NCBI GenBank assembly: GCA_951406725.2
Contig: OX597816.1
Location: 26,474,001 to 26,538,000, forward strand
Length of the DNA stretch: 64,000 nt
Origin: Octopus vulgaris
Taxonomy: Eukaryota
Reading direction: 5' to 3'
This document shows, piece after piece, positions 2,912-50,771 of this stretch; the first letter of the stretch is position 1; the number at the start of each line of letters is the position of its first letter. The position numbers were made by a program, and so were the translations under genes. Below the pieces are notes generated by a model. That model ran no database searches and had not been told where the DNA came from. It saw only the letters and a program-made list of their open reading frames with translations.

Positions 2912-2948
2912 GTATGACGTTTCGAGCGGAGCTCTTCGTCGGAAACAT
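2912..2948 (-). ncRNA. Minimal hammerhead-like motif, family A variant (core CCGACGA), in a PLE-type terminal repeat (about 2818-3010)
   Basis: Minus strand reads TTT-CCGACGA-A-GAGC-TCC-GCTC-GAAAC-GTC-ATAC. Stem II and the ACGT palindrome are intact; stem I is poor. Confidence 0.5.
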
Positions 2949-5205
2949 AGGAGAAAGAAAGATCCCGAGACGGGAGGACAGAGGAAAAAAAAATTGCAGG
3001 TAGTCTTCACGAGGTCACATACTGAAAAGACGGAAGTTGTAAAAAAGGAGGAAAATGTTTTTAAAAACAGGAGAGCTGAATCAAAGAGGGAATGGTAAAA
3101 AAGGTGTGCGAGAAAACGAGGGTGTGTGTATGTGTGTGTGCGTGTGTGTGTATGTGTGTGTATGGTGGACAGTGGCTAGTAGCAGGCAGTAGTAGAGTTA
3201 AAGGAGTGTGTGGGGGTACCCTAGCAAGTGACAAAAGCCAGGTCAGAAACAGGGAGGTATGTGTGTGTGCATGTGTATGTATGTGTGAGTGTGTGCGTGT
3301 GCGTGTGTGTATGTGTGTGTGAGGCGAGATATATATATATATATATATATATATATATATATATATATCATCCACTGATTTTTGGAACTGGATATTCTAC
3401 GGAGAGCGTGCTCTTGCTTACCTTCAACTTCAGTTTCTAGACATGGGTGGTCCCGAGACTAAGGCTTCTACCACGATTTTTAAGAAATGTGATGGAAAAC
3501 TACCTCAGGAAGTCAGGGACGCTACTCCCTGACACCCCTTTCAGAGCCCCCCAACCTATATATGTGTGTGTGTGTGTGTGTGTGTGTGTGTGTGTGTGTG
3601 TGCAAAATGGGACAAGAACGCAAAACATCCGAACAACTAGGCGATACAAATTGGGACAACAAAACATCCAGATAGACGATACAAAGAAAACAAGGACGGG
3701 TCATTCGAAGTTTTCTGTCTTCAAGCACCAGATTATCCTTGCAATTTCGGCTGATTATTCTTGAGATTGCTACACTCTGGCCAGCCACAAGGAAAAACTA
3801 AGCTAAGCGCATTATATTCCTTGGAAGAAAGCAATATATATATATATATATAGGTTGATAGCAATTTCCGTTTTAAATTTTACCGCTTCCGGTATATTCC
3901 TTTGGGTTTACCATAACGAAATTACAGCATGGAGCCTAACACATTAAGAGCTATCATCACATACAGCCTAGAAAAGGTTTGACAGTGCAAAGCTGAAAAC
4001 AGAAAGTAATTTGTGACTTGTTATATTCCACAATATACTCTAATGTAAATTCCAAGATCCGAAATAAATATATCTCAAACGAAACGAGTTTATGAAACTG
4101 CATATTTACATATATATATATATATATATATATATATATATATATATATATATATATATATATATATATATATATATATAGAGAGAGAGAGAGAGAGAGA
4201 GAGAGAGAGAGAGAGATAAATATATATACTCTGTGTGTGTCTGTCTGTGTGTTCGTGAGGCAGTTATAATTCCAGGTACTTGTTTATAACTTCTTAAACT
4301 AGAAATAAGCGTCTCCACTTCTAGTTTATAAGAAAGAAGAGTTTATAAACTGTCAGTTGAGGTGAGACTGTAAAATGCAGATTTTATATCCTCCACATCT
4401 GGTTTGCAAACCAATTCACCTTATTCTCACACTGCTTAGGTAAGATATCCATGAACGTTACAGCTTCCCATTTTTAATGGCAAACAACTGATGTATTCAT
4501 CTGAAGTTGACTTCGGTTGTATTTGAACTTATAACATGAAGATCCAGAATAATATCTGTAAGCATTTTGTCTGGCGCGCTAACGATACTGCCAGCTCGCT
4601 TCTTTATACAACATTCTGTATTAATATCGGGCGTTGGCAAAAGAGACTCGAATTTGGGAGAAGAAAGAAGAGTAGGGAGGATGAGTAGAAGAAGAATAAA
4701 GGACAATCAGGAGAAAGCACGGTTTGTTATACCGACCACGGTATATGACTGGTATCATATTTTGTCGACCATGATGAGACACGTGAACGAACGTGATCAA
4801 ATACCATGGCTGTTCATAACAGTAACGGTACATGAGCTAGTAGTTTGTGTGTTGCATTCACGATCGCGGCATTGTGGTTTCAATTCCCGGTCTGGGTGAT
4901 ACGCTCTGTAGTACACCATATACCTGTTCAAGCAACGTTTGATGGAGGGACTGGACTTAGTGTACAATGCATAATTTTGATCGCTATAAACAGATCCTTT
5001 GTGCAGCTTGTTCAGAAAGAAATTGCAGAACCATCTTTCTCGGACTACGAGAAACTACCATATTAATAGTAAGAACAATATACAAACAACAACTGTGATG
5101 ATGATGATGATGATGATGATGATGATGATGATGATGATGATAATAATAATAATAATAATAATAATAATAATAATAATAATAATAATAATAATAATAATAA
5201 TAATA

Positions 5206-5590
5206 AAGATTAGTAAATATAAAGACCTGCTAATAGAAATTTAAAAAATGTGGCATCTCAAGGCGACTACAGTACCTGTGATTGTAGGATCTCTAGGAAT
5301 GATAAAAAAAAGTACTGAAACCTATTTGAAAATTATTCCAGGCTTACCATCCCTACAGGAAGTGCAAAAAATCGTATTAACTGGAACGGCTCATGTACTG
5401 AGAAGAGCATTATCGCTGTGAAAACGACATCCATCCATGAATTTATTTATTTCTTAATTTTTAAATACATATTTTATCTGTGAATTTGCATGTGTAATCT
5501 GGGAATGCATGCAATGAGCTTCTCTGCCCTAGGTGTATGGAAAACACTCAGCGAGAAACGGAAGAAAATTTGAAGAAAGAAGGAAAAAAC
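5206..5590 (+). mobile_element. 5'-truncated R4/Dong-clade non-LTR retrotransposon in a (TAA)n tract
   Basis: KISKYKDLLIEI*KMWHLKATTVPVIVGSLGMIKK...LQEVQKIVLTGTAHVLRRALSL* (stop 5419-5421) is the C-terminus of a restriction-like endonuclease domain. (TAA)n lies on both sides. Confidence 0.88.
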
Positions 5591-6054
5591 ATAATAATAA
5601 TAATAATAACAATAATCCTTTCTACTAGAAAGGTCTGGATTTTGGTGGGAGGGGGACAGTCGATTACATCGACCCCAGTACTCTGCTGGTCCTTAATTCA
5701 TGGACCTCGAAACGATGAAAAGCAAAGTCGACGCCGGAGTAGTAGTAGTAGTAGTAGTAGTAGTAGTAGTAGTAGTAGTTGCTGTTGTTGTGGTGGTGGT
5801 GGTGATGGTGGTGGTGGTGGCGGCGGCGGCGGCGACGGAGGAGGTGGTGGTAGTGATGGTGGTGGTATAGTAGAAACGTATAAAAAATAAAATGCAGAAG
5901 CGGGCGGATTTATTAGGTAGGTCTTTGTTGCGATTTTATATGATTGCATAGAAACGATTATTCGATTGTTGTATTTATACGGTCACTGATTCAGAACGGA
6001 TTCAATGCATCGCCCCGTTGCATTGTGCAACGCTTCATATAATAATATAGTTGT

Positions 6055-6775
6055 TTGTGTGTCTGTTTGTGTGTGTGTGCATTACGTATATTCATATATA
6101 TTAATATGCATAAATGTATATATTTATATCTATCTATCTATCTATCTATCTATCTATCTATCTATCTATATATATATATATATATATATATATATATGTG
6201 TGTGTGCGTATGTGTGTATATATATATATATATATACATATATATATACATACACAAACATATATACATATGTTTAATTGCACACATACACGTATATATC
6301 CTTATACACAGATATGCACACACATATATGTGTATATATATGTATATATATATATATATATATATATATATATATGCATATGCATATGCATATATGTATG
6401 TATGCGTGTATGTATGTGTGTATGTATGCATATATGTATGTATGTATGTATGTATGTATGTATGTATGTATGTATGTGTGTATGCATGTATGTATGTATG
6501 CATGTATGCATGTATGTATGTATGTACGTATGTATGTATGTATGTATGTATGTATGTATGTATGTATGTATGTATGTATGTATGTTTGTATGTATGTATG
6601 TATGTAAGTATGTATGTATGTGTGTATGTATGTACGTATGTATGTATGTATGTGTGTATGTATGTATGTGTGTGTGTATGTATGTATGTATGTATGTATG
6701 TATGTATGTATGTATGTATGTATGTGTGTGTGTGTGTATGTATGTATGTATGTATGTATGTATGTATGTATGTAT
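6055..6775. repeat. Compound microsatellite (TATC/TA/TATG)
   Basis: Seen directly; representative of dozens of similar tracts, e.g. 16680-17240, 33430-33750, 47600-48490, 51925-53540. Confidence 0.95.
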
Positions 6776-7189
6776 CAGTTGAATCAGCCGGTTAGTCCGC
6801 CAGTCGGACAATCAAACCTGCAATGAAAAACAAACTCCTGAAAGGCAAGCGACAACAGACAGACAGACAGACAGAACAGAAAGACAGAGTGACAAAGAGA
6901 CAGACAGAGAGACACAGAAACAGTCAGACAGACAAATATGTTACCATTATATTTTTCCTGACTGCGTGCACATTTGTATTTAAATATATTGAATATATAC
7001 ATACATACATATATATATATATATATATACATACATATATATATATATATATATATATATATATATATATATATATGTAGTCCGGTTGATTCTGAATTTC
7101 TCTTGAATGAACATATATATATATATATATATATATATATATATATATATATATATATATATATATATATATATATATATATATATATA

Positions 7190-49246: not shown

Positions 49247-49294
49247 GTCTTACAGCTGTTTCTGGGATATTAGGGATATCCCTTCATCAGAGAC
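49247..49294 (-). ncRNA. Minimal type-I hammerhead motif, family B (best-preserved copy)
   Basis: Minus strand GTCT-CTGATGA-A-GGGATAT-CCCTA-ATATCCC-A-GAAAC-AGCT-GTA-AGAC. Perfect 4-bp stem I, 7-bp stem II and palindromic stem III. Confidence 0.85.
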
Positions 49295-50154
49295 GATGTG
49301 AGATGGTTAAATAGAGGGAAATATTAGAGTTGAATATGAGGAGTTACTTTGGAAAAGGATGGAAATAGGAAGTATAAAGGAAAATAAGAGAATAGAAGTA
49401 AAAATAGAAACATATGTAGGATGTTAGTGTTGCAGTTCCATTATTCAAGGAAAGTGGTATGAAGAAATGGTTTGAAATCCTCCTTGTCCATGGTATGTAA
49501 ATTCTGATGAGTTCATATTTTGTCATTACGAATGGAAAGTATGGAGACGTAGATTCCATGCGCTGTTCATTCGAAGGGGTCTTGTGGTGTGGAGGAAATT
49601 TTGAGAATGTAGTGGTATTGTTAAGTAGATAGAGGAGAGAAAAGATGTGTTTGTAGAATTGTGTAATGTATTGAGGACGGTGCATTTATAAATTACGTTA
49701 GACCTTCTGCAACGGGTTTGTTGAGGGTAGATGGTCCCAGGGCGGTAATTACATGGTAGTGGATTGTGGGGATTATTCTCAGGAATGGAGGAGGTAATAC
49801 TGTCTAAGGAGAGGTTAGAGATGGGATTAGATTGGTCTATGTCATTAGCATTATTATTACTACTATAATTACTCTTTCTATCGTTATTGTTATTTATCCT
49901 ATCTGTTATAGTGTTGGAAGCTGGGGCAGTAGTATTCTGGTTAGTATAAGTGGGATTGGTAAGGTTTTCGTTGTGATCTAAAGTAAGCGGTTCGATATCA
50001 GAGTTATGTATATGTTGGGCGCTCGTGTATTCAGAATTGTTACAGTCTACGTTTTGATAACAGAGAGAAATTTTTCATCTATTAGAGGCTGTTATGATAG
50101 ACTCGAAGTTGGGCGAGGAGGAGCAGGATTGCTTTAGATATATTAAAGATGGAG

Positions 50155-50378
50155 GCGAGCTGGCAGAAACGTTAGCACTCCGGGCGAAATGCGTGGCCGT
50201 ATTTCGTCTGCCGTTACGTTCTGAGTTCAAATTCCGCCGAGGTCGACTTTGCCTTTCATCCTTTCGGGGTCGATAAATTAAGTACCAGTTGCGCACTGGA
50301 GTAGATATAATCGACTTAATCCCTTTGTCTGTCCTTGTTTGTCCTCTCTGTGTTTAGCCCCTTGTATAGTAAAGAAAT
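50155..50378 (+). mobile_element. Full-length family B SINE inserted in the PLE
   Basis: 17-bp TSD ATATATTAAAGATGGAG at 50138-50154 and 50379-50395. Removing it rejoins the PLE linker sequence. Confidence 0.92.
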
Positions 50379-50690
50379 ATATATTAAAGATGGAGTAATA
50401 TATATGTTGACGAGGGAAGTTGGAGTCCAGTATATTAACAGAGGATTTAGCTAAGTTCTTAACGTTTAGTGAGAAGCGGGGTGTATACCATAGAATAGAG
50501 CGTATACCATTTCTACCATTTCTGCGCACCAATGTCTTTGAGTAATGGAACTGCAACTATAACATCCTACATATGTTTCTATTTTTACTTTATTCTCATA
50601 TTTCCCTTTATATTTCTTACTTCCCTCGTTTTCCAAAATAACTCCTTATACTGAACCCTACTACTTCCTTCTATTTAACGATCTCCCATC

Positions 50691-50771
50691 GTCTCTGATG
50701 AAGGGATATCCCTAATATCTCAGAAACAGCTGTAATAGACGAAAACTAAGTGTAATTTCTAACTCTAAGAC
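50691..50771 (+). ncRNA. Family B hammerhead motif disrupted by a 33-nt insertion at the cleavage site
   Basis: GTCT-CTGATGA...GAAAC-AGCT-GTA|[50735-50767]|AGAC. Confidence 0.75.

Follow-up and report, generated by a model that had tools for sequence, protein, structure and literature searches.

Hammerhead motifs of probable Penelope-like origin, several with altered cores, in the introns of an octopus homeobox gene

Introduction

Minimal hammerhead ribozymes occur by the thousand in animal genomes, in several families and mostly as solitary copies (Cervera and De la Pena 2014, PMC4209133), and in a coral more than 6000 type-I motifs fall into 16 families (PMC7229834). Such motifs are found in Penelope-like elements (PLEs), where the role of the hammerhead is stated to be unclear (PMC8557442). 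In Octopus vulgaris, PLEs are an annotated repeat order with 31 recently active families, and the word 'ribozyme' is absent from the accessible text (PMC13282606). Here we describe nine hammerhead motifs, in four families that we refer to as A to D, within a 64,000-nt stretch of the O. vulgaris genome (assembly GCA_951406725.2, contig OX597816.1, positions 26,474,001 to 26,538,000 of the forward strand; hereafter the window). We think it likely that the nine are hammerheads of the pseudo-long terminal repeats (pLTRs) of four Penelope-like families, present in introns as short, truncated and probably inert insertions, and that lineages with altered cores have spread among them. The core letters of two of the families are predicted to cripple self-cutting, which suggests that these families spread without it. 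That an animal genome holds many PLE hammerheads is already known; the octopus motifs belong to an established kind of element, and what they add is core variants that appear to be unreported.

The octopus motifs resemble the metazoan minimal hammerheads of PMC4209133 in their short stem I, the unpaired base after position 9 and the G10.1-C11.1 pair, as well as in a palindromic stem III of 4-8 nt (long palindromes also occur in that alignment), the existence of several families and the solitary, truncated state of the copies. The published consensus, however, retains A6 and A9, in part because the descriptor was designed that way, and the one core variant noted in the accessible text is at positions 3/8, whereas in the octopus A6U and A9C are common to many copies and families B and C have an extra A before G12. 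No cephalopod name appears in the accessible parts of Table S1 or the alignment of that study. Natural core variants with U4C, A6C or U3-A8 have been described (Perreault et al. 2011, PMC3088659), U4C being known from a viroid; the octopus motif at 2912 shares U4C, and others share a substitution at position 6. Those variants are rare single examples, whereas the octopus A6U and A9C mark multi-copy lineages, and neither change was found in the accessible text of that paper. In the literature that we searched, with partial coverage and with figures outside the search, we came across neither octopus PLE hammerheads nor families with A6U or A9C cores. We note that standard descriptors demand a consensus core, so that families like A and D would be skipped.

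Family D can be compared with the endonuclease-bearing (EN+) PLEs of the Neptune clade (Craig et al. 2021, PMC8557442), in which a C-terminal GIY-YIG domain is likewise followed by a pLTR with a hammerhead near its 3' end; also alike are D's inverted 5'-truncated copy, its one-sided tail and microsatellite target, and the cysteine linker of its homologues. D differs in keeping ~57 codons and no reverse transcriptase (RT), and in a tail of ~54 nt as against 30-40 bp, and because so little is left its clade is assigned from homologues and not from a tree. In the green anole's Poseidon element PAc (Frangieh et al. 2024, PMC11167929), copies end, as in the octopus, just inside an ATG-led frame that follows the hammerhead, and their ends fall, as in D, at two points that define a tail. 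Unlike in PAc, the ATG of D lies ~100 nt past the cut site; moreover the core of the PAc hammerhead is of the consensus type and its cleavage in the presence of protein has been demonstrated, whereas the octopus motifs are read from sequence. Non-LTR retrozymes (PMC7229834; bioRxiv 10.64898/2026.07.22.740005) share with the octopus motifs a type-I hammerhead in a non-coding repeat and a link to the PLE pLTR, but form tandem arrays with a complete hammerhead in each unit, whereas the octopus motifs are solitary.

Results

All nine motifs noticed by a sequence-only reading of this DNA are present in the window and have the layout of a minimal type-I hammerhead (Table 1). A structure descriptor that demanded the core, all three stems and any base but G at position 17 recovered seven of them; the two that it missed, at 2912 (weak stem I) and at 50691 (stem I displaced by a 33-nt insert), were assigned to families A and B by homology in a self-BLAST. 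Measured against 40 local dinucleotide shuffles, motifs with an intact core exceed chance (3 observed, 0.05 +/- 0.22 per shuffled window, maximum 1), as do motifs with at most one core change (6 observed, 0.85 +/- 1.04, maximum 4); at the level of two core changes four matches were listed, the sole family member among them being that with its C3 at 48942. Candidates at 497(-), 54557(-), 55723(-), 36674(+) and 37070(-) were rejected, having two core changes or improper stems and no family link.

Each motif is located close to the 3' end of a short repeat, which in turn adjoins a microsatellite. Stem II and the unpaired base after position 9 are found in all nine copies, and stems I and II are paired, with G10.1-C11.1 present, apart from the weak or displaced stem I of the two copies missed by the descriptor. 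The palindromic stem III that had been proposed for families A, B and C is indeed a perfect palindrome, and is present in eight of the nine copies, D being the exception. The grouping into four families is upheld by self-BLAST, with the motif at 2912 only distantly related to the three remaining A copies (67% over 192 columns, some of them microsatellite) and family C a single copy in the window. The consensus core CUGANGA ... GAAA ... UH is found in four copies (the three of B, and C); the other five have the altered cores given in Table 1, and only three copies combine a canonical core with a stem I in place. With five non-consensus cores and one displaced stem I, ribozyme status is thus unproven for most copies. 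Minimum-energy folds of the monomers are mostly not hammerheads, with z-scores of -0.85 to -3.14 that are not decisive. No hammerhead family is among the best 150 of 616 Rfam matches of the window, where microsatellite-driven microRNA matches appear instead, and no Rfam hammerhead matches at E<=5 around the B motif at 49247 or the D motif, as would be expected of motifs without tertiary loops.

In family A, A6U and the GUA triplet are common to all three close copies, of which those at 30789 and 35575 are identical over 36 nt and lie on the same strand, 4.8 kb apart. Across the three close copies the motif varies at 1 of 36 columns and the flanks at 58 of 128 (p 2e-7), or at 32 of 89 if the downstream flank alone is considered (p 3e-5), and no equally conserved window arose in 20,000 permutations. 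Because the motif is far less variable than its flanks, U6 appears to be a family state under constraint and not private decay. U6 is predicted to favour a competing helix of 4 bp in which the two core strands pair with each other (probability of pairing 0.98, as against 0.10 with A6), and the 4-nt palindrome of stem III is predicted to be worth only -1.7 kcal/mol. TA runs terminate the close A copies 92-102 nt beyond the predicted cut, the element at 30789 ending ~100 nt downstream. The related motif at 2912 has a 4-bp stem II, a 4-nt palindromic stem III and a mismatch in stem I. No family A sequence pattern was found in viral, metagenome or GTDB contigs. We also note that family A keeps an 8-nt downstream block resembling the intron-3'-like stretch of family B described below.

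We show by sequence comparison that family D is tied to a Penelope-like endonuclease remnant. In phmmer searches, 18995-19150 matches the C-terminal portion of GIY-YIG proteins (29 matches at E<=0.001; P0009 at 6.4e-11); three weak matches were to unrelated repeat proteins, which were excluded from the D profile built on these homologues. Pfam GIY-YIG was found in 5 of the 11 homologues scanned, above the cut-off in two; the homologues carry a CX2-5CxxC-type cysteine linker as described for Neptune, and one of them, P0027, has RT-like sequence by visual reading. Word-seeded protein searches with the D fragment returned no homologue. The D motif itself has a 6-bp stem II and a non-palindromic stem III of 2 bp. 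Over 128 aligned nt the inverted arm and the direct copy differ by no substitution and by one 7-nt duplication; the arm alone carries the extra tail of ~54 nt, TA runs are present at both ends of the element, and an ATG-led frame that starts at 19813 in the direct copy remains open through the tail. D is therefore best described as an inverted 5'-truncated copy with a one-sided tail in a microsatellite target. The sequence-only reading had placed PLE remnants beside the terminal repeats of both B and D; the GIY-YIG remnant of D is confirmed, whereas the linker proposed for B is not confirmed statistically.

Family D is also very abundant. Four sequencing runs, with three organism labels, were aligned to 19440-19835, and 9395, 3499, 6125 and 1938 contigs were placed in them. 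Over the motif the depths add up to 0.26-1.6 million, whereas single joint contigs have depths in the tens; such a sum does not measure copy number directly, and it suggests, as a rough estimate, a family on the order of 10,000 copies or more. At core position 9, A accounts for 31, 15, 29 and 13% of depth in the four runs, shares that are depth-weighted and come from contigs at least 82% alike to the C9 copy, which may favour C9. Given that the canonical A makes up only 13-31% and that no further letter is listed, C dominates this position. Position 17 is C in 77-93% of depth. No change reaches 4% at C3-G8, in stem II, at G12-A14 or in stem III, and the other changes listed lie in loop II or at H17, or turn G-C into G-U. 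The very large and diverse ribozyme-bearing PLE population that had been proposed is thus borne out as to its several families and the abundance of D, and is not a surprise, this being the published picture.

Turning to families B and C, the best-preserved B copy, at 49247, has a 7-bp stem II and a 4-bp stem I; the copy at 24117 lies inside a 144-nt fragment that is 94% identical to it, and that at 50691 in a 79%-identical repeat oriented away from it. Motif positions are conserved at 43 of 44 in B and flank positions at 220 of 257 (p 0.014), a weak excess, so that the greater conservation of motif than of flanks is seen in A and B and fails in D. The decayed frame upstream of the B terminal repeat aligns with the linker of the D profile and keeps its register, yet scores only 3.5 bits (E 8.3), and its cysteine spacing resembles the Hydra-clade motif with tyrosine at two of the three positions; it is therefore a lead only. 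The B fragment gave no homologue in word-seeded protein searches and no usable ESM Atlas match. A Pfam scan of 148 of the 251 selected window frames gave no match above the curated cut-off and no RT, the copies being truncated. Stem I of family C has three G-U pairs and one mismatch. The insert in the copy at 50691 (50734-50767, +) has a 3-nt direct repeat at its borders and starts with a 6-nt perfect stem I partner, offset by 2 nt; this insert may be an older form of the repeat. We note, lastly, that after the cut site of B (49247-49210 - and 24164-24203 +) there follow a word similar to a branch point and a pyrimidine tract, in a stretch of ~35 nt that is free of AG; the stretch resembles the 3' part of an intron, and PLEs are known to have introns in their repeats.

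Table 1. Features of the window (position 1 is its first base)
Feature	Positions	Strand	C3/H17	Remarks
Family A-related motif	2912..2946	-	2942/2916	U4C core; predicted cut after 2916
Family A motif	30789..30826	+	30794/30821	A6U core; cleavage triplet GUA
Family A motif	35575..35610	+	35579/35606	A6U core
Family A motif	48911..48946	-	48942/48915	A6U core with private G8C
Family B motif	24117..24164	+	24121/24160	Consensus core; 8-nt palindromic stem III
Family B motif, best-preserved copy	49247..49294	-	49290/49251	Consensus core
Family B motif	50691..50771	+	50695/50734	33-nt insert at predicted cut site
Family C motif	23536..23583	+	23543/23575	Consensus core; 8-nt palindromic stem III
Family D motif	19672..19716	+	19678/19711	A9C core; predicted cut after 19711
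GIY-YIG endonuclease C-terminal remnant, Neptune-like Penelope element	18998..19168	+		5'-truncated; phmmer
D inverted arm	18809..18997	-		Copy of 19711-19838, then TA run
Decayed open frame upstream of B terminal repeat	49529..50074	-		Resembles cysteine-rich linker before PLE GIY-YIG domain
Host exon, TALE/KN homeobox protein, region after homeodomain	37990..38362	+		AG/GT borders
Host exon, 45 nt	43854..43898	+		AG/GT borders
Host last coding exon	51436..51516	+		End approximate; 21/21 residues match P0002; AG border
Repeat of ~400 nt, copies	7189-7596, 10487-10860, 22495-22896, 30997-31235, 33990-34534, 44016-44406, 63652-64000			

The nine motifs had been placed in the introns of one gene, and this holds for a plus-strand homeobox gene provided that its homeodomain exon, which is absent from the 64-kb window, lies upstream of base 1. 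The large exon at 37990 is 99% identical to P0001 (source name Octopus bimaculoides homeobox protein; Pfam Homeobox_KN), and the gene looks Mohawk-like. On the same proviso a single long intron that precedes 37990 holds six of the motifs; the last intron holds the remaining three. Relative to the gene, six are in sense and three in antisense orientation.

Other repeats surround the motifs. A very common short repeat family has dozens of copies (15614-16147, 34171-34304, 41471-42247 and 50146-50385), which at 41471-42247 form head-to-tail units of ~184 nt. The dispersed repeat of ~400 nt is 72-90% identical between copies and resembles a short interspersed nuclear element by size. Two copies of a 385-nt repeat, 88% identical (38476-38845 and 42773-43156), flank part of the intron after the large exon. 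The frames 113-493(-) and 27905-28419(-) are presumably, from their appearance, decayed pieces of mariner-type transposases; the former has a weak Pfam DUF4817 match (E 0.005, below the cut-off).

Discussion

Our account of how the octopus copies arose draws on what is known from other PLEs, in which a tandem parent element is transcribed. The element's enzyme would nick AT-rich DNA, and reverse transcription would start slightly past the hammerhead, as the work on PAc leads us to suppose (PMC11167929). In the octopus, 70-320 nt separate the cut site from the end of the copy, which lies at a TA or CA run. Early 5' truncation would reduce a copy to hardly more than the pLTR, in some cases accompanied by an inverted arm and by a tail on one side, as seen for D. 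By analogy with other PLEs, cleavage in parents whose core matches the consensus would be slow, and would take place in dimers joined through the palindromic stem III or with the help of a protein, and isolated monomer copies would be inert. The A6U lineage (A) and the A9C lineage (D) would have kept spreading with little or no cleavage, in which case efficient cleavage is probably not needed for amplification. A9 is important to the hammerhead through its pairing with G12. Single changes in the CUGA turn lead to low activity, according to a source passage that does not cover A9, and the A6C variant has a kobs below 0.1 per min (PMC3088659). Hammerhead mutants are unaffected in insertion in vitro (PMC11167929), and Naiads, which have no canonical hammerheads, can outnumber the elements that bear them (PMC8557442).

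Several of our observations weigh against this account. The A motif is strongly conserved, which is as compatible with an active ribozyme as with an inactive one, the D motif does not stand out from its flanks (5 of 43 as against 18 of 293 positions variable, p 0.19), and the D shares may be tilted towards C9 by the way contigs were placed. No open reading frame remnant was found for A or C (148 frames with Pfam; 2502 segments with the D profile), and since none of A, B and C has a significant one, the Penelope origin of these three families rests on the anatomy and position of their motifs. The main rival to dispensable cleavage is that U6 and C9 mark functional variants of the natural core, which cleave as dimers, or after refolding by the element's protein, and are kept by selection for cleavage. 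The A motif, U6 included, is nearly invariant beside flanks that differ at 36-45% of columns, and the D core and stems, position 9 aside, show no change of 4% or more; natural U4C and A6C cores keep low activity (PMC3088659), and a PLE hammerhead has been found to need protein in order to cleave (PMC11167929). Nevertheless, U6 is predicted to favour a different helix, the short palindrome of A is predicted to be weak, and D has no palindrome and flanks as invariant as its motif. We consider it rather unlikely that the altered cores work, and continue to favour lineages that spread without efficient cleavage.

The inverted arm of D raises the further idea that hammerhead cleavage in vivo made the RNA 5' end that was copied into the arm, the junction being its footprint. 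The arm starts at 19711-19714 and the predicted cut falls between 19711 and 19712, and the insert of the copy at 50691 is likewise at a predicted cut site. We find a footprint improbable, however, as this is one event in a copy that carries C9, and the junction coincides in part with a glutamine codon that the homologues of the endonuclease share, which makes it ambiguous by at least 2-3 nt, with similarity possibly running a few codons further. Moreover, of 21 joints 15 were listed, and of 712 loose-end rows 24; none of those listed lies at 19711-19714, and the four strand-change joints lie elsewhere. Still less probable is that A and C, the families without open reading frame remnants, are non-LTR retrozymes multiplying through circular RNA: although retrozymes have been proposed to be non-autonomous PLE derivatives that leave monomer copies, self-BLAST of the window found only dispersed copies and no tandem unit around any motif, the motifs are minimal and not canonical, and the A core is altered. 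The retrozyme-like population that had been envisaged is accordingly not supported, every motif being solitary and outside any tandem array. Least credible of all, in our view, is co-option of the intronic copies for cutting or regulating the pre-mRNA of the homeobox gene. Six of the nine are on the strand of the gene, and the two identical A motifs could in principle pair across their 4.8 kb, but six of nine is within chance for random orientation, both sense A copies carry U6, and the sense B copies are 26.6 kb apart, one of them with its stem I displaced. Individual copies also show private decay (G8C; G-U changes in stem I), and published minimal hammerheads have shown no cleavage as monomers (PMC4209133).

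It is possible, though we advance it only tentatively, that abundant octopod Penelope lineages keep their U6 and C9 hammerheads under selection, either as working core variants not reported before or as RNA structures that have lost catalysis and serve, for example, in protein binding. If so, family D, in which A9 and C9 sub-lineages coexist and whose copies apparently number in the tens of thousands, would offer a natural test of whether the PLE hammerhead favours or impedes transposition. If altered lineages outnumber canonical ones, as the D depths suggest, the role of the hammerhead in PLEs could be approached through the age and copy number of these A9 and C9 sub-lineages.

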